NCBI GenBank assembly: GCA_965204725.1
Contig: OZ242005.1
Coordinates: forward strand, 864,001 to 928,000
Source: Candidatus Latescibacterota bacterium
GTDB lineage: Bacteria > Latescibacterota > UBA2968 > UBA8231
Length of the DNA: 64,000 nucleotides
Direction: 5' to 3'
The translations under genes were made by a program, and so were the position numbers. Under the pieces are notes generated by a model that was not told the DNA's origin, did no database searches, and saw only the letters and a list, made by a program, of their open reading frames with translations. Below, one piece after another: positions 1-23,354 of this stretch. Positions within the stretch are counted from its first letter, which is position 1. Every line of letters starts with the position of its first letter.

Positions 1-83
1 GAAGCCACGCGAAGAAAGCAAAAGTCGGCTCATCACGCAGAACCGATGACTCCTATCGGCTGCGAGAAAAACGCCTCTCTCAC

Positions 84-331
84 ATGACCCCTAATCCCGA
101 ACTGCTCAAGCGCATCACCGCCCGGACGTCTTTGGCGGCAAGCCCATCATTCGCAACATGCGAATTTCGGTAGAACTCATCCTGAGCCTGATGACACAGG
201 GCGTGACGACAAAGGCCATTCTGGAGGATTACCCCGAACTGGAACCAGACGACATCCGCGCCTGTACGGCCTACGCCCACGCAGTTATCGCCAAAGATAC
301 ACTGGCCGCCGTAGCGATTGCGGATTCGTGA
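84..331 (+). pseudogene. DUF433-family antitoxin, frameshifted copy
   Basis: Near-identical at DNA level to 2610..2852 but lacks 4 bp (atcaccgcccggacgtc vs atcaccgcccgcccggaagtc), which breaks the frame; followed by gtgagattccta (MRFL.., possible start of a lost PIN toxin). Confidence 0.8.
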
Positions 332-376
332 GATTCCTACGTAGAGCAGAGCCGCCAACACAAAAAAGGGAACTTC

Positions 377-556
377 ATGGACCAAATCACAATCAAAAAC
401 TTTCGCTGCTTCCGCGACAAACAGACCGCCCGTTTAGCACCACTGACGCTACTTGTCGGGGAGAATAGCACCGGCAAGACCTCGTTCATGGCCCTGATCC
501 GGGCACTTTGTATGGAACGGTCTATTTGGAAGAGACGGAAGGCTAAAGGGAGTTGA
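377..556 (+). pseudogene. AAA/ABC-type ATPase N-terminal fragment
   Basis: Manual translation MDQITIKNFRCFRDKQTARLAPLTLLVGENSTGKTSFMALIRAL.. contains a Walker A (GENSTGKT) but stops after 59 aa. Confidence 0.75.
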
Positions 557-559
557 GCC

Positions 560-754
560 ATGTGTGCAATTGTCGATGCGAATGTAGCCAATGAAGTTTT
601 CGGTCCCTGTAAATCTGAGGCAGGAAAGAAATTCTATGATTGGATCAACGCAGCAACGGGGCGTTTGGTAGTCGGCGGCAAGTTGCTTGCAGAACTCAAA
701 GAAGGTTCGCCAAAATTCAGAATCGACGCTATGCTCCTAGCAGGGCCGAGGTGA
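560..754 (+). pseudogene. PIN-like fragment fused to a short C-terminal remnant (IDAMLLAGPR)
   Basis: Starts MCAIVDANV (PIN-type first strand with Asp); only 64 aa; last 33 nt resemble 2551..2584. Confidence 0.5.
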
Positions 755-776
755 ATACGACCATTGGAGGAAAAGT

Positions 777-1655
777 ATGCTGATACGACACAGGATAATT
801 TTGGCTCTCCTCAGACGGATGCCGGAGCCGATCACGAGAATGTTCTTTGTGAAATTGGTCTTCCTATTGCGTCACGAGACGGCCCTAAAGAATGTAGCCA
901 GCTTCTATGACTTCGTGCCGTACAAATACGGTCCTTTTTCCTTTACTCTGTACCGGGATTTAGAACTTCTCCGCCAAGGTGGGTACGCAACCATCGAAGA
1001 CGAGATCGCGCTCTGCGAGCACACTGTCAACCAAACACAGATAGAGATCGAAAAACTATCCGATCCGATGGCATCAGCAGTAAGCGACATTGTGGACCGA
1101 TACGGCGCACTGAGCCAAAATGCCTTGATAAAAAACATGTACGCTAGATACCCATGGTTCGCACTCAACAGTGAACTTCCTGAGCGCAATCTGGTTTCGA
1201 CGCAACGTCCTAGAAGGGCTAAACCAGCCGTGTACACGGCTGGGTACGAGGGAAAATCGGTAGATGCTTTTTTCAATGCTCTCTTATTGCACGGCATTGA
1301 TGCACTTATCGATGTAAGGGCGAATCCTTCCTCCCGGAAATATGGATTTTCCAAGCGGCGACTGAGTCAGTTATGCGGCCGGTTGGATATTGAGTACCGC
1401 CACATGCCGAATTTGGGAGTGCCTAGCAGTGCCCGGACCAGTTTGGGAAGTTACGCCTCGTATCAACGCCTTCTGAGTTGGTACGAATGCTCAATGCTGC
1501 CCCAGCATGGTGCCGCAGTAGAAGAACTCGGCTGCCTCATGGGCCAGAAGCCATCCGTCCTTGTATGCGTAGAAGCAGACATCGAGTGTTGTCACCGAAG
1601 CAGGCTGGCCAAAGCCGTGGCGGACTCTACTGGCCTGGAGGTCGTGCATCTATGA
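777..1655 (+). CDS. DUF488-family protein with N-terminal SocA/Panacea(DUF4065)-like domain
   Basis: C-half has YTAGYEG..LIDVRANPSSRKYGFSK..LVCVEADIECCHRS (DUF488 signature); N-half has KLVFLL..YDFVPYKYGPFS; GGAGG RBS upstream. Confidence 0.8.
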   Translation: MLIRHRIILALLRRMPEPITRMFFVKLVFLLRHETALKNVASFYDFVPYKYGPFSFTLYRDLELLRQGGYATIEDEIALCEHTVNQTQIEIEKLSDPMASAVSDIVDRYGALSQNALIKNMYARYPWFALNSELPERNLVSTQRPRRAKPAVYTAGYEGKSVDAFFNALLLHGIDALIDVRANPSSRKYGFSKRRLSQLCGRLDIEYRHMPNLGVPSSARTSLGSYASYQRLLSWYECSMLPQHGAAVEELGCLMGQKPSVLVCVEADIECCHRSRLAKAVADSTGLEVVHL

Positions 1656-2479
1656 AGGGCCTCACTGATAAGCAGATGCTCAAGGTATTGATCACGGTCA
1701 AAACCTATCCGATCCCCTCCTCAAAGTACGACGAACTGGTTTGCACGGCCGGAGTGACGGAGACTGGGGATTTCGTGCGCCTCTATCCAATCAACTTTCG
1801 CGATCTGCCGTACAGCCGGCAGTACAAAAAGTATCAGTGGATAACAGTCACGGCTGAGCCACATGGCACAAGTGACGTACGAAAGGAAAGCTACCGCCCG
1901 GATAGTGACTCGATACAACTCGGTGAGATAGTCAAGAGTAACCCAGGAAATTGGCAGGAGCGTGCCCGCTATGCTTTGGCGAAAAAGGCCTGCTCCATTG
2001 AAGATCTGCGAGAAAGGCAAGAGGACAACGGCACCTCTCTGGGCGTTTTCAAGCCAAAGATCGTGCGTGACCTTGTCTTTTCGCCTGACGAGACCGACTG
2101 GAAGCCTCAGTTCAAGGCAGCACTGCAACAAGCTAGGCTATGGGAGACGCGCACGGTTAGTCTGAGAGAACCACCTCGTAAGGTGCCTTTTAAGTTTCAG
2201 TACCAATTTGAATGCGATGACTCACGGTGCAATGGGCACCAAATGATGATCGAGGACTGGGAGGTAGGAGCACTATTTTGGAAGCTCGTGGATAAGGGAA
2301 CCGATCACGAGGATGCAGCAACCCAGGTGCGGAAGAAGTTTTTGGACGATCTTTGCGGGCCTGACAAGGATACGCACTTCTTCGTGGGAACAATCCTCGC
2401 TTACCCCAAAAGCTGGGTCGTGATCGGCGTTTTTTACCCGAAAGTCGATCAACCAAAGCCACCAAGCCTTTTTGATTAA
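1652..2479 (+). CDS. Conserved hypothetical protein, DUF488 partner
   Basis: ATGA overlap with the DUF488 stop places the start at 1652; motif ITVKTYPIPSSKYDELVCTAG..VRLYPI; 275 aa. Confidence 0.75.
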   Translation: MKGLTDKQMLKVLITVKTYPIPSSKYDELVCTAGVTETGDFVRLYPINFRDLPYSRQYKKYQWITVTAEPHGTSDVRKESYRPDSDSIQLGEIVKSNPGNWQERARYALAKKACSIEDLRERQEDNGTSLGVFKPKIVRDLVFSPDETDWKPQFKAALQQARLWETRTVSLREPPRKVPFKFQYQFECDDSRCNGHQMMIEDWEVGALFWKLVDKGTDHEDAATQVRKKFLDDLCGPDKDTHFFVGTILAYPKSWVVIGVFYPKVDQPKPPSLFD

Positions 2480-2501
2480 AGTACCAATGAACATACCAAT
2501 G

Positions 2502-2584
2502 CTCCGCCTTGCCAACGCCCTATCCTCCCTCTACCCTCAAGGCTGCAACTCTCGACGCCATGCTGCCTAGCGGTGCCGAGGTAG
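2502..2584 (+). pseudogene. 3'-end remnant, probably of a DUF1156-type adenine methyltransferase
   Basis: Reads LRLANALSSLYPQG..LDAML(+1)LAVPR*; the last ~33 nt repeat 722..754. Assignment to DUF1156 is from recall of C-termini in DUF499 operons. Confidence 0.5.
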
Positions 2585-2609
2585 CCGGACGTAACCTACG
2601 GAGAGAGAC

Positions 2610-2852
2610 ATGACCCCTAATCCCGAACTGCTCAAGCTCATCACCGCCCGCCCGGAAGTCTTTGGCGGCAAGCCCATCATTCGCGACATGCGAATTTCAG
2701 TAGAACTCATCCTGAGCCTGATGACACAGGGCGTGACGACAAAGGCCATTCTGGAGGATTACCCCGAACTGGAACCAGACGACATCCGCGCCTGTACGGC
2801 CTACGCCCACGCAGTTATCGCTAAAGATACACTGGCCACCGTAAGGAGGTGA
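2610..2852 (+). CDS. DUF433-family antitoxin
   Basis: ITARPEVFGGKPIIRDMRISVELIL..ILEDYPELEPDDIRACTAYA is the DUF433 pattern. Confidence 0.9.
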   Translation: MTPNPELLKLITARPEVFGGKPIIRDMRISVELILSLMTQGVTTKAILEDYPELEPDDIRACTAYAHAVIAKDTLATVRR

Positions 2853-2856
2853 CAGC

Positions 2857-3822
2857 ATGGCACTCTATGGAAACGACCACGCAATATGGCAAGTATCTGC
2901 CGGCCCTACTAATCGATCCTACGCCAATAAGTTCCTGAAGTACGACGTAGCACTGATTGGTCCCGGAAATTCGGGACAGTGGCGTCCTGACCGATCCGAC
3001 GAGGAATTTGCAGGTAGGTTTGTTCGGTATTTTGCCGACCAGCTATGCAGTGGCGATGTGCTACTGCTTCGGACGGGTCAAAAGACCATACGGGCGGTCG
3101 GCTTGGTTACAGGAAAGTACCAGTACCTGCCGCAGTTTGACGACGTAAATGGCTGGGACTTGCAACATGGGCGGCGCGTACGCTGGTGTCCGCTTCCCGA
3201 GCCGTACGATTTTGGCAGACCAGTTTTTGGCGCGAACCCGCCTCGAATATCGCGTGTTCATGTGGAAGACGTCGTGGATTATGCAAATCGTTTTGTTCAA
3301 TCAGAACCCACGGATTGGCAAACTAAGGCTTTGCCAAGGTTGCCTAAGAAGGGAGCGGAACTCAAAGCACCACCACCGGAATTGCAGGAGATTGTCACTC
3401 AAGTCCATGACTTTTTAGATTTGTATTGGAATGAGGACAACTTCGGGACGCCACCAGTGGAGGATGAGTTAGTCGCGCACTACGTCGTTCCTTTCCTGCG
3501 CGCCCTAGGATGGCCCGTTGAGAGAATTGCGGTGAAATGGCGCGATATAGACCTGTGTGTGTTCTCCGCGCTGCCGAGAAAACCAGAGCATTGCCACTAC
3601 TTGATTGAGGCCAAACGATTGGGTGCAGGCGTTGAAGGTGCGCTTGAGCAGGCAAGAGGCTATGTCTCAGCCCTCGGCGTACCGTGTGACGTGGTCGTTA
3701 CCGATGGCATCCGCTACCGGATGTATGAGGCCAGTAAGAATTTCGAGCCCGTCGCCTACGCGAATCTGGCGCGTCTAAAGCAATCGTCCTTAGAATTATT
3801 CGCACGTATGCGCAGACCGTAA
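2857..3822 (+). CDS. Putative restriction endonuclease: EVE/PUA-like N-domain + HsdR_N-like PD-(D/E)XK nuclease
   Basis: N-part GDVLLLRTGQKTIRAVGLVTGKY; C-part PFLRALGW..DIDL..IEAKRLG..ALEQARGY..VVTDGIRY; AGGAGG RBS. Confidence 0.65.
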   Translation: MALYGNDHAIWQVSAGPTNRSYANKFLKYDVALIGPGNSGQWRPDRSDEEFAGRFVRYFADQLCSGDVLLLRTGQKTIRAVGLVTGKYQYLPQFDDVNGWDLQHGRRVRWCPLPEPYDFGRPVFGANPPRISRVHVEDVVDYANRFVQSEPTDWQTKALPRLPKKGAELKAPPPELQEIVTQVHDFLDLYWNEDNFGTPPVEDELVAHYVVPFLRALGWPVERIAVKWRDIDLCVFSALPRKPEHCHYLIEAKRLGAGVEGALEQARGYVSALGVPCDVVVTDGIRYRMYEASKNFEPVAYANLARLKQSSLELFARMRRP

Positions 3823-3835
3823 CCAGAGAAAAAAC

Positions 3836-3908
3836 GTGGCCCCTTGGCACAAAATCGTAATGCTCCGCAAGGAAGTGAGCGAAGGCCGCTCTTTAGCACG
3901 GGCGAGCG
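3836..3908 (+). repeat. Degenerate copy of the 5' end of the DUF499 gene
   Basis: gtggcccccttggcacaaaatcgtaatgctccgcaaggaagtgagcgaaggccgctctttagc aligns by eye with 5280.. atggccctcaacccttggtacaaaatcgtaacgcttcgcaaggaagtgcgcgaaggccgctcgtttagc. Confidence 0.85.
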
Positions 3909-3960
3909 GTGAGATGCCTCATTGGCAGACGAGCCGGTCTCCGCGCAGGGAGGATATTCG

Positions 3961-5139
3961 ATGAGCAAAACAGCCTCCATAGATTATATCCGCATCCAGG
4001 GCTTCCGATCCTTGAAGGATGTCGAGCTTGCGGGAATTCCCAAGGCAGCGGTTCTAATCGGAGCCAACGGCTCAGGCAAGTCCAACTTTATTCGCTTCTT
4101 TGAAATGATGAACTGGATGCTTGAGCATCGCAGGCTCGCTGAGTTCATCGGTAGCCGAGGAGGGGCCGATGACCAATTACATGGCGGCAGCCGACGGACG
4201 TCACACATAGAGGCCGAAGTTAGATTGCACATCGATGAGGGCTATGGCGACTATAGGTTCATGCTTTCCCGTGCTCAGCCCGACCGTTTCATATTCGCGG
4301 ATGAAGCATTCCGATTTATCTATCCCAACGATTCCCATGGCGAGACAGATTGGTATCCTCTCGGAAGTGGCCATTCGGAAGCAAAGATAGTCGATGCCGT
4401 ACAACTCTTCTCACCTTCGGCTAGCTCATTCCCTGCCACCCTCGCCACCCTCGATTGGCTCGAAGCCAATCCGCTTACTGCCGAGCGCATTATCAATCGA
4501 CTGCGGAAGTGTTCGATATATCAATTTCACGATACATCCGACGAGTCGAATTTCAAAAAGAGATGGGATGCTGAGGACAACAATGACCTTCTTAACCACG
4601 GGGGCAACTTGGCCGCCGTGCTACTCAGGTTGGAGCGGGAAGACATCAAGCGATACGAGAGAATCTGCCAGCACATCAGCCGAGTCTTGCCGCTCTTCGA
4701 CCGTTTTCAGGTCGAGGAGAGCTACGGAAAAGTATTGCTGAGATGGAAAGCCAAGTGGACGGACAAGACCTTCGGCGCACACCTCACGTCCGATGGCTCG
4801 CTGCGGTTCTTTGCCTTGGTGACACTACTCAATCTACCGCCGGAGATGTTGCCCGATGTCCTCTTGTTGGACGAACCGGAACTGGGCCTGCATCCGGCCG
4901 CCATCGCTTTAATCGGGGGTATGATAAAGTCCCTCGCCGAGGAAAGGCAGGTCATTGTGGCAACGCAATCGCCCTTGCTAGTTGATGCGTTTGGTCTCGA
5001 CGAGATTTTCGTGTTAGAGCTACGGGACGGTCGCACTGAAGTTCGCAAACACGCCCCGGATGACTATCAGGTGTGGCTCGACGACAACTTCACATCGGGT
5101 GAGCTTTGGCAGAAGAACCTGCTCGGAGGACGCCCATGA
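3961..5139 (+). CDS. AAA_21/SMC-like ABC-type ATPase
   Basis: Walker A GANGSGKS, signature SDGSLRF, Walker B LLLDEPELGLHP, ATQSP; GGAGG precedes ATG at 3961. Confidence 0.9.
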   Translation: MSKTASIDYIRIQGFRSLKDVELAGIPKAAVLIGANGSGKSNFIRFFEMMNWMLEHRRLAEFIGSRGGADDQLHGGSRRTSHIEAEVRLHIDEGYGDYRFMLSRAQPDRFIFADEAFRFIYPNDSHGETDWYPLGSGHSEAKIVDAVQLFSPSASSFPATLATLDWLEANPLTAERIINRLRKCSIYQFHDTSDESNFKKRWDAEDNNDLLNHGGNLAAVLLRLEREDIKRYERICQHISRVLPLFDRFQVEESYGKVLLRWKAKWTDKTFGAHLTSDGSLRFFALVTLLNLPPEMLPDVLLLDEPELGLHPAAIALIGGMIKSLAEERQVIVATQSPLLVDAFGLDEIFVLELRDGRTEVRKHAPDDYQVWLDDNFTSGELWQKNLLGGRP

Positions 5140-5249
5140 TCCGAGTTGACGGCCCCCTTTTAGCAATGGAGATAGGCTTAGCCAAAATTCGCGCTAAATG
5201 TCCTCGGTTCGATGGCTGGGTAACGAGCTTGGAGTCGCTGGGGAGCTGA
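5136..5249 (+). pseudogene. DUF4276-like gene with large in-frame internal deletion
   Basis: MIRV|DGPLLAMEIGLAKIRAKCPRFDGWVTSLESLGS*: ATGA-coupled to the ATPase; keeps only the first residues and the CPRFxxW C-terminus typical of the DUF4276 partner. Confidence 0.65.
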
Positions 5250-5279
5250 GATTAAACTGCCGCATAGGAGAGATACAGC

Positions 5280-6614
5280 ATGGCCCTCAACCCTTGGTAC
5301 AAAATCGTAACGCTTCGCAAGGAAGTGCGCGAAGGCCGCTCGTTTAGCCCGGACGAGTTCGCCATCGCCCTTGAGCAGATCGTAGCCCAAACCGCCCCGG
5401 CCGATTATCGCGAGCCAGCGCAATTCTTCTCACGCACCTGCTTCACCCGCGCCCTAAAGGAACACGCCGGCATGGTCCTCCGGCGACTTTCCGGCAAGAC
5501 CGAGAACACAGCACCCGTCCTCACGCTCGTCACCCAATTCGGCGGCGGCAAGATGCACACCCTCGCTTCCCTCTACCATATCGCCAATGCCGGCGCGGAG
5601 GCCGCCCAGTTCCTCGGGGTGGCAGACCTCCTAAACGAGGCGGGGATCGCAAAAGCTCCGCCCGCTCGCGTCGGCGTCTTCGTCGGCAACGCCTGGGACC
5701 CGGCCGAGGGTCGAGAGACGCCTTGGATCGAACTAGCGCGTCAACTGGCGGGCGATAAGGGCGTGGCCGCGCTCGGTACTGCCGCGAAAACCACACCCCC
5801 GGGAACCGAGGCGCTGGCCAACGTATTCGCCGCTGCGGACGCGCCCGTGCTGCTGTTGTTCGATGAAGTCCTAAACTTCGTCAACCGCCATCGCGACCTA
5901 GCCGAGCCTTTCCACGCCTTCCTGCAAAATCTGACCGTCGCGGTCACCGGCACCACGCGGGCCGCCGCGGTCATCAGTCTGCCGCGCAGCCAAGTTGAAA
6001 TGACCGATTGGGATCAGCAGTGGCAAGACCGAATCACCAAGGTGGTGCGCCGCGTCGCTCGCGATCTAATTGCCAACGACGAATCCGAAATTAGCGAAGT
6101 GGTGCGCCGGCGGCTGTTTGAAGACCTCGGCAACGAGCGCGTTCGCAAGCGCGTCGCCAAGACGTACGCGGACTGGTGCTTTGAACGCACCGCCCGCTTA
6201 CCGGCCGAGTGGCTGGCGGTCGATACCGCGACGACTGAGGCCAAGGCAAGGGAATTTTTGCGGGACCGCTTCGCAACGTGCTATCCCTTTCATCCGGCGA
6301 CCCTCTCGGTCTTTCAGCGCAAGTGGCGCGCACTCACTCAGTTCCAGCAAACCCGAGGGGCGCTGGCCATGCTAGCGCAATGGATTTCTTGGGCCGCCCG
6401 CGAGCAATTCACAAAGGCGCGCACCGAGCCGCTGATTACGCTGGGATCGGCGCCATTAGACGTGTCCGAGTTCCGCGCTGTGGTTTTGGGCCAGTTGGGC
6501 GAGTCGCGGCTCGACGTGGCGATTGACTCCGATCTCGACCTTGAGGATCAGGTACGCGTCGAACGATCGCAGCCCCCTCGGGCTACCCTTCCTCCCGCGC
6601 CACCTTCCCCTTGA
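5280..6614 (+). pseudogene. DUF499 AAA+ ATPase, truncated
   Basis: PWYKIV..DEFAIAL..TQFGGGKMH (Walker A Thr->Met), LLLFDEV, YPFHP, FQQTRG; much shorter than typical DUF499 proteins and runs into the convergent SDR. Confidence 0.8.
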
Positions 6615-7416
6615 CAATTCGCTCGGCCAGCGGCGGCCACAAGGCGTGAATCACCGCCAGCAGCCTGAGCCGTCTAGGCACATACAGCCGCTGCTGTCGC
6701 TTCTGCATCCCGCGCACAATGGCCTGCGCCGCGGCCTCCAAGCTCACCGCGTCCGCCCGGTGTTTGCGCGATGCAGCACCCAACGCCTTCCCGTCCTTCC
6801 CCAAGGCGCGTTGCCGTAGATCGGTCCCCTTGAGCCAGTGCAAGAGCACGGTCATCACCCCCACCCCGCTAGCGGCCACCTCCATCCGCAACGCGTCGCA
6901 AAACCCCTGCAGCGCGTGTTTGGACGCCGAATACCCCGTGTGCAGCGGCACCCCCACCTGCCCCTGAATGGACGAAATAGCCACGAATAGGCCCTTGCTT
7001 TTTTTGAGATGCGGCAGCGCCGGATGCACGCAGTACACAGCCCCCAAGTAATTCACCTCCATCAGGGTGCGGAACAAGGCCACCTCCTCGATCGCGGCAA
7101 ACGCGGTCCACATGCTGAGGCCGGCGTTGGCGACCAAGTAGTCTATGCGGCCAAAGTGCTCGATCGCGGCCTCAACCAGCCGCTTGCCAGCCTCGGCCAA
7201 GGAGACATCCCCGACGACGGTCACCACCTCGCTCCCCAACTGCTCGCACGCTCGGGCGACGGCCTCTAGCCGCTCGGCATCGCGCGCCAAAATAACCAGC
7301 CGCGCTCCCTGCTGGGCGCATTCCAACGCCAGCGCCGCGCCCAAGCCGGTAGAAGCCCCGGTAATGACGACCGTCTTATTGCTCAGGCTTTTCGCCCGCC
7401 CGGCCAAAAATCCCAT
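6583..7416 (-). CDS. SDR oxidoreductase, DHRS7/DHRS7B-like
   Basis: TGASTGLG Rossmann motif, ANAG, SSIQG, YSASKHA (YxxxK). Start uncertain (7416 ATG or 7428 TTG). Confidence 0.9.
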   Translation of the reverse strand: MGFLAGRAKSLSNKTVVITGASTGLGAALALECAQQGARLVILARDAERLEAVARACEQLGSEVVTVVGDVSLAEAGKRLVEAAIEHFGRIDYLVANAGLSMWTAFAAIEEVALFRTLMEVNYLGAVYCVHPALPHLKKSKGLFVAISSIQGQVGVPLHTGYSASKHALQGFCDALRMEVAASGVGVMTVLLHWLKGTDLRQRALGKDGKALGAASRKHRADAVSLEAAAQAIVRGMQKRQQRLYVPRRLRLLAVIHALWPPLAERIVKGKVAREEG

Positions 7417-9217
7417 TCTGAATGCCAAAGATATTTTGGGGATCCAGTGCTTGTTTGGTCTTGCGCAGGACCTCGATGCTGTTGTCGCTCTGGATGTGCC
7501 GGACGAAGCTCTGGCGGATTTTGCCTACCCCGTGGTGGTGGGACAGCGAGCCGCCGTGGTCCAAAATAGTCTGCCGCAGGGCGTGCTCAACGTCGTGATA
7601 GACCGCAATGGGGTGCGCCAATCCCCGGCCGGAAAACCCCATCGTAAAGTAGATGCACACCCCGGTGTGGTACGTCTGCGTCACCCGGTACGACAGATAA
7701 GGCCGGCCGGCCACGCCGCGGGCACTGCACTGCGCGCTGAGCTCGGCTTGCACGGCCTGCGTCACGTCGTGAATGCGGCTCCACGGCACGGAGGTCTCAA
7801 AGGTCTCGCCCAAGAAATCGAACTGGTTCAAAAAGTCGCGGATATAGGCGATCCCAAAGGTCAGCATGTAGCCGCGCCGGCCGTTGGTCGCCCCGGCACT
7901 CTTGCCGCCGTGGGCCTTGGCCAGCTTGAAAATAGTCCGCTTCTGGTGGGCGACCTCGGCGCGGCTCCCTTCCATCGCGATCGTACAGGCCGCCATTTTT
8001 AGCGGGTCAAACCCCAACACCTTCAACAAGGCAAACTTCTGCACCTTTTCCTTGAGATGCTGCAAGGGAGAGGGCGCGGCCTTGAGCGCCTGCCCGAAGC
8101 GGAACTCTTGGTTGTTGACCAAGCGGATACTCGCCGGCAAGGTCCCGGTCTGGCGCAGCGCCTGCAAGTACGCCACGCCTTGGGCAAAGGACTTGAACAC
8201 CAGCGAACCGTATTCGCGCACCTCTGGCACGGGATGGATCTTGAGCACGGCCTTGGTGATGATGCCGAGGTTGCCCTCCGAGCCAAAAAGCAGCCCGCGC
8301 GGCTGGATGCCGGTCGAGTTGCGAGGCGTGGTGTGCAAGGTCTCCAGCGCGCCAGTCGGCGTCACTAGGGTCGCTTCGAGCACGATGTCTTCGATGTTGC
8401 CGTAGCGGTTTTTCTTCATGCCGCTGGCGTTGGTCGCGATCCAGCCGCCCAAGGTCGAAAGCTCAATGCTGTCGGGATCGTGGCCGGCCGTGTAGCCCCG
8501 GGCGGCGAGCGCGCGCTCCAGCTCCTTGCCCGCAATCCCCGCTTCGACGCAGGCTTGGAGGTTTTCCTCGTCGAGCTCGACGATCCGGTTCATGCGCCGC
8601 ATGTCAACCGAGGCGAAGACGCGCTCGTCGTCTGCGGGCAGGGCCAACGCGCCGCTGACGTTGGTGCCGCCGCCGTAGGGCACGAGGCACACGTCGTGCT
8701 CGGAGGCGAGGCGCACGATAGCACTGACCTGCTCTTCGCTCGCGGGATAGAGCACCAGATCGACCACTCGCCCCAAGTCGTCGCCGTAGAGTACGCGATA
8801 GACCTCATCGACGCTGAGCTGGCCGTGGCTGTGAATTAGGCGCTCGTCGTCGTCGAGCGAAACGCCCTCGCGGCCGAGCGCGTCTTGCCAAGCGGCGACG
8901 AGGCTGACATCGGCCCGCGAGGGCGGTACGACTCGGCCCTCTTTTTCGACCGCCCGCTCGTTGGGATCAATCGGGACTTGGAGCATCTCCTCGACAAAGG
9001 GGATGAAATGGGGCATGGTGAAGCCGGCCAGCGGATAGCGGCTGCCCGTAACTCGCACGGTCTTTGGCCCGTCGAACTCAAAGCGGGTGTCCGTGTAGCC
9101 CCATTTGTGCGGATGGCGCTCGCCATCGGCGAAATCGTAACACGCATCGGTCGTGGCTCGGCGAACCACGGCCGCGGCGACCGCAAGCGCGGCGACAACG
9201 AGGGCGAATTCGATCAT
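7376..9217 (-). CDS. Alkyl-dihydroxyacetonephosphate synthase-like FAD oxidase (AGPS/ADPS family)
   Basis: KWGYTDTRF, HSHGQ, PYGGGTNVS, GHDPDSIELSTLGGWIATNASGMKKNRYGNIED, GSEGNLG, GETFETSVPW, RVTQTY, GGSLSHHHGVGKIR. Confidence 0.88.
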   Translation of the reverse strand: MIEFALVVAALAVAAAVVRRATTDACYDFADGERHPHKWGYTDTRFEFDGPKTVRVTGSRYPLAGFTMPHFIPFVEEMLQVPIDPNERAVEKEGRVVPPSRADVSLVAAWQDALGREGVSLDDDERLIHSHGQLSVDEVYRVLYGDDLGRVVDLVLYPASEEQVSAIVRLASEHDVCLVPYGGGTNVSGALALPADDERVFASVDMRRMNRIVELDEENLQACVEAGIAGKELERALAARGYTAGHDPDSIELSTLGGWIATNASGMKKNRYGNIEDIVLEATLVTPTGALETLHTTPRNSTGIQPRGLLFGSEGNLGIITKAVLKIHPVPEVREYGSLVFKSFAQGVAYLQALRQTGTLPASIRLVNNQEFRFGQALKAAPSPLQHLKEKVQKFALLKVLGFDPLKMAACTIAMEGSRAEVAHQKRTIFKLAKAHGGKSAGATNGRRGYMLTFGIAYIRDFLNQFDFLGETFETSVPWSRIHDVTQAVQAELSAQCSARGVAGRPYLSYRVTQTYHTGVCIYFTMGFSGRGLAHPIAVYHDVEHALRQTILDHGGSLSHHHGVGKIRQSFVRHIQSDNSIEVLRKTKQALDPQNIFGIQNGIFGRAGEKPEQ

Positions 9218-9250
9218 GGCTCCATCTCCTGTGAAGCAGTGGTCGCCAAA

Positions 9251-10303
9251 CTACAGCCCCTCCTGCACATCCTTTTTCCGCACTTTCCAGATAAAGGCGT
9301 CGTAGTAGTAATGGATCAGGGCAAAGGAACTGAGCAGCGAATAGCTGAAGAGGTCGAAATTGGTGTTGAAGCCGACTAGGCCAAAGCCAAAGTCGCGCAC
9401 CAAGCCCTCGCTCAGCGCGTGAAAGACGACGGCGTAGGCGGCGCACAGCAGGATGAAGAACTTGACGCCCCCCTTGCCCGCCACATAGCGCAGGAGGGCC
9501 GAATCGCCGCCCGTGCGCTCGACCTTGTGGCGGTTGTAGAAATACACCATGACGATGTACTGAAGCCCGTGCATAATCCGGTGCGCCACCGCAAAGACCA
9601 GCAGGTAGGCCGTGGTAAAACTAGTGAAGTACCACAGGAAATAGCTCGACAGCAAAAAGGCGTACTTGAGGGGATTGAGTGCCAAGCCGCGCCGAGCGCA
9701 ATAGGCGATGTGCCCCAAGTAAATCAGGCCGTAACCAAGGGCAACGGCCCAAGAAATTTGCTGGACCCATTGCACGGCCTCCGCGCTGATCGGCAAGTGC
9801 CACTCGTGCAACATGCGTACCCAGACCGTGGAAAACAGCGGCGACACCACGAGCATATTGCCGAAGAATATCCAATTGAAGGCCAAGTCGAACTTGGCGG
9901 TGGCGGGCGCGCCGGCCTGAGCCTTGAAGTCGTACACCCGCGCAAAGCCGTATTGCTGCATCAAGCTGTGCTGGTGATCCCACAAGGTCACGATCAAGAC
10001 CAAACTCAACGGCGCCCACTGGATTAAGCCATAAGCAAAGGCGACCAACACCACCGGCCCGAGAATGAACCGCTCCTTGAAGCGGGCGAACTCGGCCGGC
10101 GAGCCATAGACGCGCAGCCAAGTGACGAAGTGGTGCGGAATGGTCACCCACAGGGCAATGGCCGCCAGCGCGGCCCCCGGCAGGTAGTGCCCCGACACCA
10201 GCGCAAAGCAGACCGCGGCAAAGGGCAGGCCCACAAACCAGATATAGTCCTGCCGGCGATCGACGATATAAGCCGGTTGGAGAACGATGGAATTACTCGC
10301 CAT
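9251..10303 (-). CDS. Multi-pass membrane protein with conserved His motifs
   Basis: About 8-9 hydrophobic segments; motifs PHH, WDHQHSLMQQYG, HRIMHGLQY, HYYYDAFIWK. Confidence 0.8.
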   Translation of the reverse strand: MASNSIVLQPAYIVDRRQDYIWFVGLPFAAVCFALVSGHYLPGAALAAIALWVTIPHHFVTWLRVYGSPAEFARFKERFILGPVVLVAFAYGLIQWAPLSLVLIVTLWDHQHSLMQQYGFARVYDFKAQAGAPATAKFDLAFNWIFFGNMLVVSPLFSTVWVRMLHEWHLPISAEAVQWVQQISWAVALGYGLIYLGHIAYCARRGLALNPLKYAFLLSSYFLWYFTSFTTAYLLVFAVAHRIMHGLQYIVMVYFYNRHKVERTGGDSALLRYVAGKGGVKFFILLCAAYAVVFHALSEGLVRDFGFGLVGFNTNFDLFSYSLLSSFALIHYYYDAFIWKVRKKDVQEGL

Positions 10304-11870
10304 GAGCAGTGGCCAAAAGGGCTAACGCCACAGCGTCGGGGCTGAAGCGGATTTCGTGGGCGCGGCGCTGGCGCACCGCTGCGGCTAGCTCCTTGATTGC
10401 CGCTTGGAGTTGGGCCGCGCCCCAATCCTCCTCCACCTGTGCGCGGATTTCCTCAAGCGGCGGCAGGCGGGCCGGGCGGCGGCGCAACACCTGTAGGACA
10501 ATATAACCATTATCCGTGGCAAAGGGGCCGTGCAACGTCCCTTCGTCGGCGCGGAGGGCGCGGCTGACCGGGTTGTCGCCCTCTAAGGCGCCGCTGCCGT
10601 AGATCACGCTGACGAAGCGATCGACGAGCGCGGTCGTATCGCGGCCGGCGCGCATTTGCTCGACAAGGGCGATGCCCTCGGCCTCGTCGTGCGCGAGCAG
10701 CCGGCGCACCTCCACCTCGGCTTGGGTGGTGTACCGGAGCTTGTGCTCCTCGTAAAACAGGCGCAGGCCGTTGGGATTGGGCGCGGGCACCTGCGCTCGC
10801 AGCGCGTCCTGCAAACGCCGCGCCAGTTGCACCTGCCGCAATCGCTCCAACTCGCGCTGCAGGTCCGGGTCGGTGGCGAGCGCGAGACGCGCGGTTTCGA
10901 GCGGGACCAGCACGCGCCGCCCGACCTCGCGCCGCAGCACCTTTTCGCCCGCACCTTGGCCCTTCAGCAGGTCGCGGGCCTGCGCGACCGTTAGCACCCC
11001 GCCATCGTACGCAGCCACGACTGCCTCGGGCGACCGGCCCGGGGCCAGCCCATCCGGCTCGTAGCGCACGGCATAGCGCACGTGTAGGGTGTCGTAATAC
11101 GCCAACAACTGCCGCCCGAGCTTTTCCCGCAGCACCAAGCGCTGAATGGTCTCTCGCTCCTGCTCAAAGCTGACCGGGTGCATGTCCGTGAGCTTGATGA
11201 GAAAGTACCCGTCGGCGACCTGCAGCGGCTCGGAAACTTCCCCGACCTGCATGGAAAAGGCCCTCTCGGTCAGGGCGGCGTGCGAGGCCATGGTGTCGCC
11301 CCAGCGGTGATAGCCCATGTCGGCGCGGCGCTCCAAGATCCGCGAGTCCTGCGAGTGCTGTAGCGATAGCTCCTCAAAGTCGGCCCCGGCCGCGAGGGCG
11401 GCCAAAATCTCCGGTAGCTGCGCGGGGTCGCGCACCATTAGCAGGCTAAAGCGCACGCGGCGGTTGTACGGGCTGCGCTGGAAATAGGCCCGCAGTTCCT
11501 CCTCGGCAACCTCGGGCTGGGCGATCTCGGCGCGGGTGTACAAAGCCTGCTGCACCAGCCGCGCCTGCGCCTGCGCCTGCCATTGCAAAAACTCCGCGCT
11601 CTCGCCCAAGCCCCGCCGCTCGGCTTCCTGCACGAGCAGCGTTTGCTCGACGATGGCCTCCAACAGTTGCTCGGCCCCATACTCCGCCCGCAATTCCGGC
11701 GTCACCTTTGCGATGTACTGGCGGTAGTCGGCCACCCGAATCGCCGTTTGGCCCACCTCCACCAAAACCGCGTCTTCAGCCGCCCCGGCCGGACCGTCTT
11801 CAGCGCAGCCGCTTGCGCCGACCACGGCCGCGCAAAGCACCGTTCTCACCCAATGCTTATTCAGCTTCAC
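10293..11870 (-). CDS. PpiC/SurA/PrsA-like peptidyl-prolyl isomerase lipoprotein
   Basis: Lipobox-like ASGC; GADFEELSLQHSQD..DMGY..GEVSEPLQVADGYFLIK parvulin pattern; second degenerate PPIase domain. Confidence 0.8.
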   Translation of the reverse strand: MKLNKHWVRTVLCAAVVGASGCAEDGPAGAAEDAVLVEVGQTAIRVADYRQYIAKVTPELRAEYGAEQLLEAIVEQTLLVQEAERRGLGESAEFLQWQAQAQARLVQQALYTRAEIAQPEVAEEELRAYFQRSPYNRRVRFSLLMVRDPAQLPEILAALAAGADFEELSLQHSQDSRILERRADMGYHRWGDTMASHAALTERAFSMQVGEVSEPLQVADGYFLIKLTDMHPVSFEQERETIQRLVLREKLGRQLLAYYDTLHVRYAVRYEPDGLAPGRSPEAVVAAYDGGVLTVAQARDLLKGQGAGEKVLRREVGRRVLVPLETARLALATDPDLQRELERLRQVQLARRLQDALRAQVPAPNPNGLRLFYEEHKLRYTTQAEVEVRRLLAHDEAEGIALVEQMRAGRDTTALVDRFVSVIYGSGALEGDNPVSRALRADEGTLHGPFATDNGYIVLQVLRRRPARLPPLEEIRAQVEEDWGAAQLQAAIKELAAAVRQRRAHEIRFSPDAVALALLATAHGE

Positions 11871-13227
11871 GGTCTTCCTTCATCTTTTGAATCGTTGCCA
11901 ACTCCTGCTTGCTCTTTTCCACGTCCCCCGCTTTTAGATAGGCGATGGCCAATTTCCGGCGCGCATCCAAAAACTCCGGTCGCCCGGCCACCGCGGTCGC
12001 CAACACTTCGGCGGCCCGCGCAAAATCGCCCTCGCGCGCATAGAGCAAGCCCAAGAAGTAGTTGATCTCCACGTCTTCTGGCGTCCGCTCGTGCGCCGCG
12101 TGCAGGCTGGCTAGGGCCTCGTCAAAGCGCTGCAAGCGCATCTGCGCTTGGGCTAAATTGTAGTGGGCCTTGGCGTATTCGGGGTCCAAGGCCAGCGCGG
12201 CTTGGTATTCGGCGATGGCCGCGGCGAATTCGCCCAAGCGCAGGTAGAGGTTGCCTAAGTTGTTGCGGTAGCGCAAGCTATCCGGCGCGAGGCGCACGGC
12301 CAGCCGATAGGCTTCGGCCGCTTCGGCCAAGCGACCTTGCTCCGTGTACAACAGCGCGAGTTGCGCCCGCGCCTCGTGGTCGTCGGGCGCATTGCCCAGC
12401 ATCCGCAGTTGGTCGTCAATTTTGTCGAGTTGCTGGTCGAGCGCCCGAAACCGCGCCAGCACTTGGGTGCTCTCCGCAGAGTGGCCGAGCCGCTTGAGGG
12501 CATTGGCCAGCGCGAAGTACGCCTCCTTGGACAAAGAGTCGAGCGCGACTGCGCGGCGGGCGGCGCGTTCGGCAGCCGCGTACGCACGCCGCTTGAGTTC
12601 CACCTGCGCCAGATCGACGTACGCGGCTGCGTCCGTGCTGTCCAGCGCGACTGCCCGCCTCAGCGCGGTCGCGGCCCGCTCCAAGTCGAGTTCCTTCAGG
12701 CGCGTCCGGCCCAAGAGCCGATAGAAGGAAGCATTCGTCGAGTCGCGGTCCAGCCCTGCTTGCAGCAGCGTTTCCACTTCGCCGTACTCGCCGCGCAAGA
12801 AGTAGATGTACCCGAGGTCGTAGTAGGTCGTTAGATGACCGGGGTCTAACGAGAGTACCCGGCGGTGTTCGTCAATCGCTTGGGCGTAGTTGAGCTGTTT
12901 GACGTACAGGGCCGCGAGGTTGTGTCGCGCCGATACGTGCGTCGAGTCGAGTGCCAATACGCGCTGATAGGCCGCCATGGCGCGGGGGTAATCGAGCGAG
13001 CGCACGTAGGCATTGCCCAAGTTGTAGTGGATTTTGGCGGCAGCGGGCGCGAGCGCGGCGGCTTGCTGATAGGCGTCAATGGCCTCGGTGTGGCGGCCCT
13101 CCGAGGCGAGCGCAATGCCGCGCCCAAAGAGTGCTTCGGCTTCTATGGCCCAACCGGGGCGCACCTTTTCGGGCGGACTCTGCTCGGCACAAGCGTACAA
13201 TACGAAGCAGAAAAGCAAAGCTCTCAT
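11857..13227 (-). CDS. TPR-repeat lipoprotein
   Basis: Repeated HYNLGNAY/NNLGNLY/HYNLA TPR units; N-terminal LYAC. Confidence 0.9.
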   Translation of the reverse strand: MRALLFCFVLYACAEQSPPEKVRPGWAIEAEALFGRGIALASEGRHTEAIDAYQQAAALAPAAAKIHYNLGNAYVRSLDYPRAMAAYQRVLALDSTHVSARHNLAALYVKQLNYAQAIDEHRRVLSLDPGHLTTYYDLGYIYFLRGEYGEVETLLQAGLDRDSTNASFYRLLGRTRLKELDLERAATALRRAVALDSTDAAAYVDLAQVELKRRAYAAAERAARRAVALDSLSKEAYFALANALKRLGHSAESTQVLARFRALDQQLDKIDDQLRMLGNAPDDHEARAQLALLYTEQGRLAEAAEAYRLAVRLAPDSLRYRNNLGNLYLRLGEFAAAIAEYQAALALDPEYAKAHYNLAQAQMRLQRFDEALASLHAAHERTPEDVEINYFLGLLYAREGDFARAAEVLATAVAGRPEFLDARRKLAIAYLKAGDVEKSKQELATIQKMKEDREAE

Positions 13228-14852
13228 CGCGCCGCTCCTTCGACGAGCTCATGCTCTTGGTCGATTCCTAAGTCCGCGTATTCCTCGACCAGACCGCTCG
13301 GCCAATAGACGACCACGCGCTCAATAGTCGTGGCCGTTCCCAGCCCAAAGTGTAGCCGCAGGTCGCTCTGGGAGAGGAAGCTGGCACCGGAGCGCACTTC
13401 GTCGGTCTGCACCTGTCCGCCGCTTGTGACTTCGACGCGCGTACCAATGCCGGCGCGGTTGCTGTCGCGGCCGACTAGCCGCAGGCGCACATAGTGCCCG
13501 CCCGCGCCATCGTTGCGCATCAAGGTCGGCGCGGTGGCGACATTGGCGACTAGTACATCTATATCGCCATCGTCGTCGTAGTCGCCAAAGGCCGCGCCGC
13601 GGCTGACTCGTTTTAAGGACAGCGCACCGCCGTTCTCTACGTATTCTTCAAAGCGCCCATCGCCGGTGTTGAGAAAGAGCTGATTGCGCTGGGGGAAGGT
13701 CGCGTTCTCGTATTGCTCGACATCGCTTTCCAAGTGGCCATTGGCGATAAACAGATCGCGGTCGCCGTCGTTGTCGGCATCGAAAAAGCGCGTTCCCCAC
13801 GCCAAATAGGCAATCGTGCCCTTGCCCAACCCGGCGAGGAACGTCTCATCGACAAAGGTGCCGTCGCCGAGGTTTTTGTACAAGGTATTGGTCTCCCACT
13901 GAAAGTTGGTGACGAAAAGGTCGTAGTCGCCATCGTTGTCGTAGTCGCCCATGTCAACGCCCATGCCCGCTTCGACGTCGCCATCCTCGTTGTACGCCAC
14001 GCCGGCCAACAGCGCTTCTTCGGCAAAGTGGCCGGTGCCGTCATTGAGATACAAGAAGTTCAAGGTCTTGTCGTTGGCCAAGTAGAGATCGGGGTCGCCA
14101 TCGAGATCCACGTCGCCGAAAACCACGCCGAGCTCCTTGCCCTCGGCGCTGCCCAGCCCGGCGGCTGCCGTGATGTCGGCAAAGGTGCCGTCGCCCTCGT
14201 TCCGATACAGCACGTCGGTCACCCCGTCAAAAGCCTCCGGGCCGCAGTAGAGTTGCAAGCCGCTGCCGCCCTCGGCGCAGACGCGGTGGTTGGCATAAGA
14301 AAAGTTGTGGTAATTGCCCACGTACAAATCGACGAAGCCATCGCGGTCAATGTCGGCAAACGCAGCACTCGCTCCCCAGCCCTCGTCGCCGACTTGGGCG
14401 GCCGCGGTCACGTCGGCAAACGTTCCATCGCCCTCGTTCCGATACAGCACATTGGCGCCGAAGTTGGTGACGTACAGGTCGAGGTCGCCGTCGTTGTCCG
14501 TGTCGCCGACCGCTAGGCCCATGCCGTAGCCGGTGTCGCCGACGCCGGCGTGCTCGGTTGCATCGGCAAAGGTGCCGTCGCCTCTGTTCCGGTAGAGCGC
14601 GTTTTGCGGCGCCGGGTCGTATTCGGTCCCCCGCACAGCGGCTCCGTTGATGAGGTAGATGTCGAGGCGACCATCGCCATCGGAGTCGAAAAAGCCGCCG
14701 CCCGGACCGACCGTTTCAATGACGAATTTCTCGCCGTTAGCCCCGTTGACGTGGACGAAGCCGATGCCCGCGTCGTGGGTGGCGTCGTGGAAGTGCGGGT
14801 TGGCGTGGAGGGGGACGGATGCGAGCAGGAGGAGCAGGAGAAACTTGAGCAT
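13224..14852 (-). CDS. CRTAC1-family protein (FG-GAP/VCBS repeats + ASPIC/UnbV)
   Basis: Repeated DxDxDGDxDLY; C-terminal SNRAGIGTRV..SFLSQSDLRLHFGLG..WPSG; signal peptide. Confidence 0.92.
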   Translation of the reverse strand: MLKFLLLLLLASVPLHANPHFHDATHDAGIGFVHVNGANGEKFVIETVGPGGGFFDSDGDGRLDIYLINGAAVRGTEYDPAPQNALYRNRGDGTFADATEHAGVGDTGYGMGLAVGDTDNDGDLDLYVTNFGANVLYRNEGDGTFADVTAAAQVGDEGWGASAAFADIDRDGFVDLYVGNYHNFSYANHRVCAEGGSGLQLYCGPEAFDGVTDVLYRNEGDGTFADITAAAGLGSAEGKELGVVFGDVDLDGDPDLYLANDKTLNFLYLNDGTGHFAEEALLAGVAYNEDGDVEAGMGVDMGDYDNDGDYDLFVTNFQWETNTLYKNLGDGTFVDETFLAGLGKGTIAYLAWGTRFFDADNDGDRDLFIANGHLESDVEQYENATFPQRNQLFLNTGDGRFEEYVENGGALSLKRVSRGAAFGDYDDDGDIDVLVANVATAPTLMRNDGAGGHYVRLRLVGRDSNRAGIGTRVEVTSGGQVQTDEVRSGASFLSQSDLRLHFGLGTATTIERVVVYWPSGLVEEYADLGIDQEHELVEGAAR

Positions 14853-14868
14853 TTGGTAGGTGCGGTGG

Positions 14869-15135
14869 CTAGGGAAAGTGTTGGTAAAAATCTCGGCGTG
14901 GCAAACATCGTGCGAAAATTACGGTGCCCTCGTCGAATTGAAATCCAAGCCTATAGTCGCCGATTCGCACCCGGTAATGGTTTCCGCCGCCGCGGAGTTT
15001 TCGGACATCACTTATCTCTGTAAGATCGTTTGCTTCCTTGACTTGCTCTATCGCTGCCTTGACACGCGCTCCAATAGATCGATTTTGGATATGTCTGAGG
15101 TCTCTTCCAAAACTGTTTTTGAATAAGACTTTCAA
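14869..15135 (-). CDS. RelE/ParE-family toxin
   Basis: MKVLFKNSFGRDLR..VRKLRGGGNHYRVRIGDYRLG..RRDFYQHFP. Confidence 0.88.
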   Translation of the reverse strand: MKVLFKNSFGRDLRHIQNRSIGARVKAAIEQVKEANDLTEISDVRKLRGGGNHYRVRIGDYRLGFQFDEGTVIFARCLPRRDFYQHFP

Positions 15136-15138
15136 AAT

Positions 15139-16434: not shown

Positions 16435-16497
16435 GCCTCATCCTCTTGGGAATTACCATTGAACCTAACTAGGTGCTTCTGCGGCGTCAAAAAGTCC

Positions 16498-23098: not shown

Positions 23099-23230
23099 CG
23101 CTTTGATACAGAATGGGTTCTTAGCGACCATAGTATAGCAGCTTGCTACGCGACACGATCCCCCAGCTTTCTTAGAAGCGTTCTTAACACTCTTGTTGCT
23201 TTTGGCTCGTCTTGCCTGACGACGCGAGGC

Positions 23231-23257
23231 GTCATTCCCGCGAAAGCGGGAATCCAG
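23231..23257. repeat. REP-like palindrome
   Basis: gtcattcccgcgaaagcgggaatccag hairpin; inverted near-copy at 42720..42746. Confidence 0.8.
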
Positions 23258-23354
23258 TATTGAAGGATGTAGGATTGCTATAATTAGCACTTAGCAAATT
23301 TACATGGCCCTAATATATTTGATTGAAATAGATACATTTTCTTAGGAGGTCTTT

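Follow-up and report, generated by a model that had tools for sequence, protein, structure and literature searches.

An AGPS orthologue by sequence and a classical SDR overlap in the window

We analyzed a 64,000-nucleotide stretch of the genome of a Candidatus Latescibacterota bacterium (GCA_965204725.1, contig OZ242005.1, positions 864,001 to 928,000; hereafter, the window), in which two overlapping genes on the minus strand encode what we propose to be consecutive enzymes of ether lipid synthesis. The first (7376..9217) starts at an ATG and encodes a protein of 613 amino acids, identified by Pfam, PDB, and catalytic-residue alignment as an FAD-dependent alkyl-dihydroxyacetone phosphate (alkyl-DHAP) synthase, AGPS (EC 2.5.1.26). 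The second (6583..7428) encodes a classical short-chain dehydrogenase/reductase (SDR) that is a candidate NADPH-dependent acyl/alkyl-DHAP reductase (EC 1.1.1.101). An earlier reading made from the letters alone (the sequence-only reading) had placed both open reading frames (ORFs) at exactly these coordinates on the minus strand, and each motif that it quoted is present in the two proteins, an agreement well outside the range of chance. The AGPS stop codon (TAA, 7378 to 7376) falls within the SDR frame, for which TTG 7428, ATG 7416, and TTG 7407 are possible starts, ATG 7416 being the likely one. Depending on the start codon, the SDR has 266 to 281 amino acids (281 from the TTG at 7428), and the 3' end of AGPS overlaps the 5' end of the SDR gene by 32 to 53 nucleotides (nt) within 7376..7428. 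This overlap suggests a single transcript and coupled translation.

The AGPS opens with a hydrophobic segment (residues 4 to 18) and contains the Pfam domains FAD_binding_4 (PF01565, 140.7 bits, residues 153 to 293) and FAD-oxidase_C (PF02913, 125.8 bits, residues 331 to 597). In a search of all PDB sequences, the top match was guinea-pig AGPS (4bby; 500 bits, E = 6.8e-149), with query residues 37 to 601 aligned on chain residues 94 to 656, so that the AGPS-specific N-terminal region is covered from query residue 37. Dictyostelium AGPS (2uuu) scored 293 bits. The first match outside the AGPS family was 3pm9, a putative oxidoreductase, at 103 bits, and D-lactate and glycolate enzymes scored 90 to 96 bits. 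Motifs of AGPS are found at residues 37 to 48 (HKWGYTDTRFEF), 265 to 277 (SGMKKNRYGNIED), 511 to 516 (RVTQTY), and 557 to 566 (SLSHHHGVGK). The last of these includes the HHH loop, which has a functional role in AGPS and is identical (H560 to H562) to that of both solved AGPS in the alignment. R365 of the query aligns with the site mutated from Arg to His in chain 4bc7 (ASI[R/H]L), Y523 aligns with the site mutated from Tyr to Phe in chain 4bca (CI[Y/F]F), and R460 and Y523 occupy the aligned positions of Dictyostelium R447 and Y508. The catalytic Tyr (guinea-pig Y578, Dictyostelium Y508) and two Arg (R419/R352 and R447) are thus retained as Y523, R365, and R460. The legend of Fig. 5 in PMC3509576 names Dictyostelium R352, R447, and Y508 as important for catalysis.

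NCBIfam has no AGPS model, and none of its models fits the protein; the best is GlcD, with 175 bits where the cut-off is 568. In GenBank, the relatives are labeled only "FAD-binding oxidoreductase"; JGI calls many of them "alkyldihydroxyacetonephosphate synthase." The NCBIfam and GenBank records would be compatible with an ordinary VAO-family 2-hydroxyacid dehydrogenase of the D-lactate/glycolate type, with the SDR as an unrelated neighbor. We regard this alternative as extremely improbable, given 500 bits to AGPS structures versus at most 103 for lactate and glycolate enzymes, a match that includes the AGPS-specific N-terminal region, the conservation of the HHH loop and of the three catalytic residues (one Tyr and two Arg), and a conserved gene order with a fatty acyl reductase and an acyltransferase (see below). 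On the strength of these scores and residues, sequence and structure comparison therefore identifies the flavoenzyme as an AGPS orthologue and not a D-lactate/glycolate dehydrogenase, and it is very likely a working AGPS. The sequence-only reading had made the same identification and had named grouping with D-lactate/glycolate dehydrogenases as the outcome that would speak against it; the identification stands, and no such grouping was found.

One database match, P0072 (1060 amino acids, on a 5.8-kb contig), consists of an AGPS with 67% identity to the query and a C-terminal class I/II aminotransferase domain (residues 708 to 1044). It forms a single-member cluster and may be a genuine fusion or an artifact of read-through in gene calling.

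The SDR belongs to a family without a named function

The window SDR matches Pfam adh_short (165 bits) and, over model positions 2 to 266 of 268, NCBIfam NF004825 (PRK06181; 292.1 bits, cut-off 215), a family without a named function. The full classical motif set, including the N-S-Y-K tetrad, is retained: TGxxxGxG (23 to 30), NAG (101 to 103), N126, S152/153, Y166, and K170, with residues 152 to 172 reading SSIQGQVGVPLHTGYSASKHA. Arg49 lies after strand 2, as in the NADPH-using 11beta-HSD1; an Arg in this position is the cofactor rule for NADPH.

The best solved relatives in the PDB are 11beta-HSD1 enzymes (99 bits). Among the nearest 30 Atlas clusters, those auto-named 3-dehydrosphinganine reductase (KDSR) hold ranks 1 and 2, 11beta-HSD1 holds rank 17, and DHRS7B holds rank 27. 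An exhaustive search returned 474 related representatives at E ≤ 1e-30. Several of these (35 to 40% identity) are 300 to 350 amino acids long, with a hydrophobic N terminus and 30 to 50 extra N-terminal residues, and they share a C-terminal helical extension with the window SDR. No N-terminal membrane anchor was found in the window SDR, whose Rossmann motif begins 10 to 22 residues after any possible start. DHRS7B carries such an anchor, which is a feature of localization rather than of catalysis. The sequence-only reading had labeled the SDR DHRS7B-like, pointing to an "SSIQG" likeness. As a statement of orthology the label is not supported, given the 11beta-HSD1 relatives, the Atlas rank of DHRS7B, and the missing anchor. 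Sequence comparison suggests instead that the SDR sits in an 11beta-HSD1/DHRS7-like neighborhood, with DHRS7B orthology as a candidate relation only. The window SDR resembles NF004825 and the 11beta-HSD1/DHRS7-like enzymes in motif set and length; unlike the latter, it has no N-terminal anchor and its context is strictly tied to AGPS. Among the representatives scanned, we found no fusion of an SDR to a fatty acyl reductase, AGPS, or acyltransferase; those of 500 to 840 amino acids were tandem SDR-SDR proteins, and one shorter protein (451 amino acids) carried an alpha/beta-hydrolase domain.

The SDR is coupled to AGPS across loci and genomes

We scanned genomes, one per species, with an AGPS alignment. 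This gave at least 601 pattern matches, at least 509 of which encode a relative; the best 80 loci were kept, their neighbors were found by tblastn, and all counts out of 80 refer to them. By record title, the 80 loci are mostly from Latescibacterota, with some from Gemmatimonadota and single ones from Trueperaceae, Poribacteria, Planctomycetota, Neomarinimicrobiota, or Chloroflexota. In 63/80 loci, AGPS is followed on the same strand by an SDR orthologue (47 to 91% identity), and the gap is at most 150 nt in 50 of these 63. Close relatives share the overlap between the two genes (offsets of -43 to -49), and in distant loci the SDR begins 0 to 150 nt past AGPS. The pair also occurs in records titled Trueperaceae, Poribacteria, and Planctomycetota.

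A profile of 168 genomes of the phylum (AGPS at E ≤ 1e-100, SDR at E ≤ 1e-60) gave the same picture. AGPS was detected in 125 genomes, the SDR in 118, and neither in 43. Every SDR-positive genome was also AGPS-positive (118/118), and the SDR alone was found in 0/168. Genus g9 (G103, G104, and G105) and G092 retain the SDR, but at another place in the genome. The trait is present in 71/75 genomes of family f1, 22/22 of f3, and 29/31 of f4, and it essentially marks these families of one class. Genus g15 and family f2 are without typical AGPS and SDR yet keep the ~650-amino-acid acyltransferase described below; their joint absences are the informative events for the co-occurrence. Because gene order is conserved in 63/80 loci and co-occurrence is 118/118, a functional link between AGPS and the SDR is well supported by comparative genomics, as the pairing in the sequence-only reading had implied.

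Other forms of AGPS were seen in the same surveys. A second, divergent type, 44 to 47% identical to the query, is present in G151, G038, and G095. In G038 it directly follows the ~650-amino-acid acyltransferase gene on the same contig, and neither G038 nor G151 has an SDR orthologue. Loci L090 to L096 and L098 (titled Ardenticatenaceae, Anaerolineae, Leptofilum, or Promineifilum) encode an AGPS of 55 to 56% identity without the SDR, the fatty acyl reductase, or the ~650-amino-acid protein; in L090, AGPS comes after genes for a thiolase and an enoyl-CoA hydratase/3-hydroxyacyl-CoA dehydrogenase.

Sister lineages carry a four-gene operon

In 26/80 loci, from sister lineages, a fatty acyl reductase (FAR), a ~650-amino-acid protein, AGPS, and the SDR are encoded in this order on the same strand. 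The operon FAR consists of NAD_binding_4 (about 200 to 218 bits) and Sterile domains, and reductases of this architecture carry the reduction of acyl-CoA through to the alcohol. The enzymes of the eukaryotic peroxisomal pathway are FAR1, GNPAT, AGPS, and DHRS7B/PexRAP, and the order of the four-gene operon matches these four steps.

The ~650-amino-acid protein has no Pfam match at 1e-5, and a PDB sequence-profile search gave nothing better than E = 0.27; a fold search alone resolved it. An AlphaFold model of the 646-amino-acid copy from the window's own genome (pLDDT 81.7, pTM 0.85) has a helical N-terminal domain of ~350 residues followed by an acyltransferase fold. Residues 358 to 646 match PlsC of T. 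maritima (5kym) with a Foldseek E value of 7.9e-5 and a Z score of 17.0 (root mean square deviation of 3.4 Å, 230 of 241 residues), and Z scores against human GPAT1 and plastid GPATs are 11.3 and 9.6 to 9.9, respectively. An alignment of 20 family members contains an invariant His with Asp or Glu at +5 (PTHQSLLDH/PSHQSMLEH) in all 20 sequences, together with IYPMGTTA and VVIVPIAFRG blocks; these three elements are similar to acyltransferase blocks I, III, and IV. Its modeled fold and H(X)4[D/E] motif thus identify the 646-amino-acid protein as a predicted glycerolipid acyltransferase, and because of its place in the operon it is a candidate DHAP acyltransferase. The family is present in 132/168 genomes of the phylum; it is missing from just 2 AGPS-positive genomes and present in 9 AGPS-negative ones.

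Like the eukaryotic pathway, then, these bacteria have a full-length AGPS orthologue with the same catalytic residues, and related operons encode a FAR, a glycerolipid-type acyltransferase, AGPS, and a classical SDR in pathway order. In contrast to that pathway, no organelle is involved, and in place of a PTS2 targeting signal the window AGPS has a hydrophobic N terminus. The acyltransferase has diverged beyond the reach of Pfam and PDB sequence searches, and only its fold and H(X)4[D/E] motif reveal it; the window SDR differs from DHRS7B in having no N-terminal anchor.

The operon also bears on which step the SDR performs. AGPS might make alkyl-DHAP while the SDR reduces a fatty aldehyde to the alcohol, or a lipid ketone such as a 3-keto-sphingoid-type base, and another enzyme reduces alkyl-DHAP. 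The top two Atlas clusters fit such a role, as does the absence of any DHAP reductase among the nearest solved relatives, which are 11beta-HSD1. A second SDR, three genes from an ElbD-like gene in the same genome (see below), could then be the alkyl-DHAP reductase, and the aminotransferase domain of P0072 points in the same direction. However, none of the 168 genomes profiled has the SDR without AGPS, the operon follows pathway order, its FAR is of the type that proceeds fully to the alcohol, and no aminotransferase was present among the scanned neighbors of 22 loci. We consider a role at another step unlikely and favor reduction of alkyl-DHAP by the SDR.

The remaining pathway genes lie elsewhere in the window's own genome

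The sequence-only reading had pointed to GNPAT-like and fatty acyl reductase genes as what to look for in the rest of the genome (5.43 Mb, 94% complete, 10% contamination), and our search found one FAR domain and two acyltransferase candidates. The sole FAR homologue forms the N-terminal portion of a 1398-amino-acid FAR/AMP-binding/acyltransferase protein (contig 1, 4.623 to 4.627 Mb), whose gene lies ~3.75 Mb from the AGPS-SDR pair. Its FAR part (NAD_binding_4 plus Sterile) is 39% identical over 530 amino acids to the operon FAR. The three kinds of domain make the protein like myxobacterial ElbD, encoded in the elb cluster. Its gene neighbors those for Lgt, an FMN oxidoreductase, and, three genes away, the second SDR; no PP-binding domain was found in the protein at a threshold of 0.001. 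The ElbD-like protein probably feeds the AGPS pathway. The second acyltransferase candidate is the 646-amino-acid protein (contig 1, 4.128 to 4.130 Mb), which is 45% identical to the operon copy.

The PlsR/Ger domain PF09989 was not found in the genome, and control genomes did give matches. PF10520 (CarF/PEDS1) likewise gave no match in this 94%-complete genome, but 0/14 control genomes matched either, so that its absence is not demonstrated.

Upstream of the 646-amino-acid acyltransferase gene and on the same strand (locus L100, 378 to 9463; contig 1, 4.121 to 4.130 Mb) are genes for two sulfotransferases, a GPP34 (Golgi phosphoprotein 3)-cytochrome P450 fusion, and a PhyH-type dioxygenase, plus two small ORFs without a family. 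This gene set looks like a lipid-tailoring cluster.

The dispersal of these genes raises the alternative that the pair serves salvage or remodeling of ether lipids or fatty alcohols from a host or prey rather than de novo membrane synthesis, a role that the sequence-only reading had also entertained. In the window genus, the FAR and the acyltransferase are indeed outside the operon. An RNA library labeled as a sponge metagenome has contigs 90 to 95% like the AGPS and SDR genes, and a sponge-symbiont preprint describes sponges as rich in ether lipids (10.64898/2026.06.23.733905). Against this, a FAR domain and two acyltransferase candidates are encoded in the genome itself, all four biosynthetic genes share one operon at 26/80 loci, the trait spans one class, and the surroundings of the AGPS-SDR pair showed no lipid uptake genes. 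Because FAR and acyltransferase genes are present, we judge remodeling of host lipids to be improbable and retain de novo synthesis as the role of the pair.

Genes flanking the AGPS-SDR pair

In the window genus, AGPS and the SDR are preceded by a gene set for an FG-GAP/UnbV_ASPIC protein, a tetratricopeptide repeat (TPR) protein, and a peptidyl-prolyl isomerase (PPIase)-domain protein (10293-14852, minus strand) and by a gene for a 350-amino-acid polytopic, all-helical membrane protein of an unnamed family (9251-10303, minus strand). These genes overlap or are separated by a gap of 33 nt. The block adjoins AGPS in just 13/80 loci. A similar set recurs nearby in the window as a 1089-amino-acid FG-GAP, ASPIC, and TPR fusion (20021-23290, minus strand), beside which lies a second, divergent PPIase gene (23355-24989, plus strand).

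The 350-amino-acid membrane protein was considered as a CarF/PEDS1-like or AGMO-like desaturase or hydroxylase of the module and was rejected, since its distribution does not follow AGPS. It is present in 51/168 genomes, all in family f1, and is absent from f3 and f4 despite AGPS and the SDR there; 4/5 genomes of g15 have it, and just one of these has an AGPS match, a divergent one. Residues H57, D109/Q111/H112, H241/H245, and H331/D335 are invariant, and judging from the alignment these His/Asp clusters look like a metal site. The protein has no Pfam or NCBIfam match even at E = 1, and its model (pLDDT 82.5) has no Foldseek match at E ≤ 0.001; the best fold match (rhodopsins, Z = 7.1) is within noise for helical bundles. 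There are 247 database matches, and the named ones among the matches listed are all "hypothetical protein." Two distant paralogues (29% identity) are encoded in longer frames on contig 1 near 5.293 Mb and 1.541 Mb.

A promoter and terminator scan of positions 5000 to 17000 gave counts equal to those of shuffled sequence (4 versus 2.7 and 13 versus 12.7, respectively), which leaves the operon limits undefined. RNA libraries of four studies contain contigs that are 90 to 95% alike, hence derived from relatives, and that partly cover the AGPS, SDR, and membrane protein genes. The AGPS-SDR junction is bridged by none of them, and as such contigs cannot show transcription, strand, or level, they were not used as evidence.

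On the other side of the pair, a 444-amino-acid ORF (5280-6614, plus strand) runs toward the SDR gene, with whose 3' end it shares 32 nt. The ORF matches the first third only of a ~1025-amino-acid anti-phage DUF499 model, and an AAA_21/AAA_15 ATPase gene (3922-5139, plus strand) lies just before it. G+C content drops from about 0.63 to 0.52 to 0.58 over positions 1 to 6000, which is possibly the edge of a defense island with a truncated gene. Farther along the window, a Fic/DOC-family protein (47432-48427, plus strand) adjoins a 1528-amino-acid protein in which a domain search found Peptidase_M28 and FtsX-like permease domains (42836-47422, plus strand).

Discussion

We propose that AGPS and the SDR form the core of a DHAP-route ("peroxisome-type") ether lipid pathway. 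In this scheme, the FAR domain of the 1398-amino-acid ElbD-like protein would supply fatty alcohol in trans, and acyl-DHAP would likewise come in trans from the acyltransferase domain of that protein, from the 646-amino-acid acyltransferase, or from both. AGPS, with oxidized FAD as a covalent scaffold, would swap the acyl chain of 1-acyl-DHAP for the fatty alcohol, giving 1-O-alkyl-DHAP. The downstream SDR would most likely reduce the C2 keto group with NADPH to yield 1-O-alkyl-sn-glycerol-3-phosphate, which would enter ordinary phospholipid synthesis and emerge as 1-O-alkyl glycerolipids. We infer from gene context the substrate of the SDR (alkyl-DHAP, with NADPH), DHAP as the acceptor of the acyltransferase, the FAR as the source of the alcohol, and the lipid products. 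Taken as a whole, with the SDR as the alkyl-DHAP reductase, we regard this account as reasonably likely.

A bacterial AGPS route has precedent. Myxococcus xanthus is described as having an MXAN_1676 operon encoding AGPS, a FAR-GNPAT fusion, and an epimerase-family protein (PMC9131029), and, as in the window's genome, this route coexists there with an ElbD-type multidomain protein (PMC9131029). By gene content the two differ: here AGPS is followed by an NF004825-type SDR instead of a FAR-acyltransferase fusion and an epimerase-family gene, and sister lineages carry the FAR and the ~650-amino-acid acyltransferase as separate upstream genes. No FAR-acyltransferase fusion was found beside the window AGPS, whose neighbors are the SDR downstream and the family-less membrane protein upstream. 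Within the phylum, a study of Black Sea metagenome-assembled genomes of Latescibacterota reports Agps homologues in 67/92 and ElbD homologues in 50/92 (PMC11868695). The sponge-symbiont preprint reports that agps and elbD co-occur in sponge-associated Latescibacterota, Poribacteria, and Acidobacteriota (10.64898/2026.06.23.733905), and its section 15 includes standalone elbD matches in Latescibacterota. The sequence-only reading had called the module distinct from the known bacterial routes, which is overstated given the M. xanthus route, the published AGPS of Latescibacterota, and the ElbD-like protein in this very genome. The AGPS gene of this lineage is already known; the new value lies in its partner genes and their distribution.

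Several observations weigh against the proposed pathway. AGPS is not always accompanied by the SDR. Of the 17/80 loci that have no SDR, 4 (L030, L032, L038, and L069) have less than 1.2 kb of downstream DNA, and the remaining 13 are informative: L090 to L096 and L098 of Chloroflexota, L086 and L089 of Planctomycetota, and L072, L074, and L077 of Latescibacterota. Seven of the 168 genomes also have AGPS alone; G117, G120, G093, and G065 are fragmented assemblies, G151 and G038 have the divergent AGPS (46 to 47% identity), and the last is G034. Related genomes are moreover not independent, and few evolutionary events underlie the co-occurrence. The acyltransferase Pfam family PF01553 scores 17.8 bits on the 646-amino-acid protein, below its cut-off of 23, and 13.9 bits on the L064 homologue. 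The substrate of the SDR is deduced from context, with steroid dehydrogenases as its nearest solved relatives and clusters auto-named 3-dehydrosphinganine reductase as its nearest in the Atlas. Finally, loss of MXAN_1676 is reported to lower the ether lipids of M. xanthus only slightly, ElbD being the main route (PMC9131029; 10.1101/2025.10.10.681575). By analogy, AGPS could be minor here as well, since an ElbD-like gene is present. Section 15 of the sponge-symbiont preprint reports no short-chain plasmalogens of the bacteria-associated kind (10.64898/2026.06.23.733905).

In a broader and more tentative proposal, which we hold as possible but somewhat doubtful, a class of Latescibacterota has a complete bacterial "peroxisomal" ether lipid pathway as a four-gene operon, split in the window's genome. 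The pathway would include two unrecognized enzyme families, namely, a ~650-amino-acid divergent GPAT-fold DHAP acyltransferase and an NF004825-type SDR as the first bacterial acyl/alkyl-DHAP reductase. We found no paper on an SDR partner of bacterial AGPS, on a bacterial acyl/alkyl-DHAP reductase candidate, or on a FAR/acyltransferase/AGPS/SDR operon in a search with partial full-text coverage, to which the supplements of 10.64898/2026.06.23.733905 and 10.1101/2025.10.10.681575, which may list loci, were external. The conserved partner genes of bacterial AGPS were apparently not known before.

Bacterial ether lipids serve as environmental biomarkers and are relevant both to the "lipid divide" and to how plasmalogen synthesis arose in eukaryotes. 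Should the SDR turn out to be sister to eukaryotic DHRS7/DHRS7B, all eukaryotic steps to alkyl-glycerol-3-phosphate would have separate-gene bacterial counterparts outside Myxococcota, a result that would matter for the proposal that the eukaryotic pathway originated in myxobacteria. Surveys to date count agps and elbD matches gene by gene. The AGPS-SDR pair and the four-gene operon provide testable candidates for two enzymes still missing from bacteria, an alkyl-DHAP reductase and a DHAP acyltransferase, and they may offer a stricter genomic marker of a working DHAP route than an AGPS match alone.

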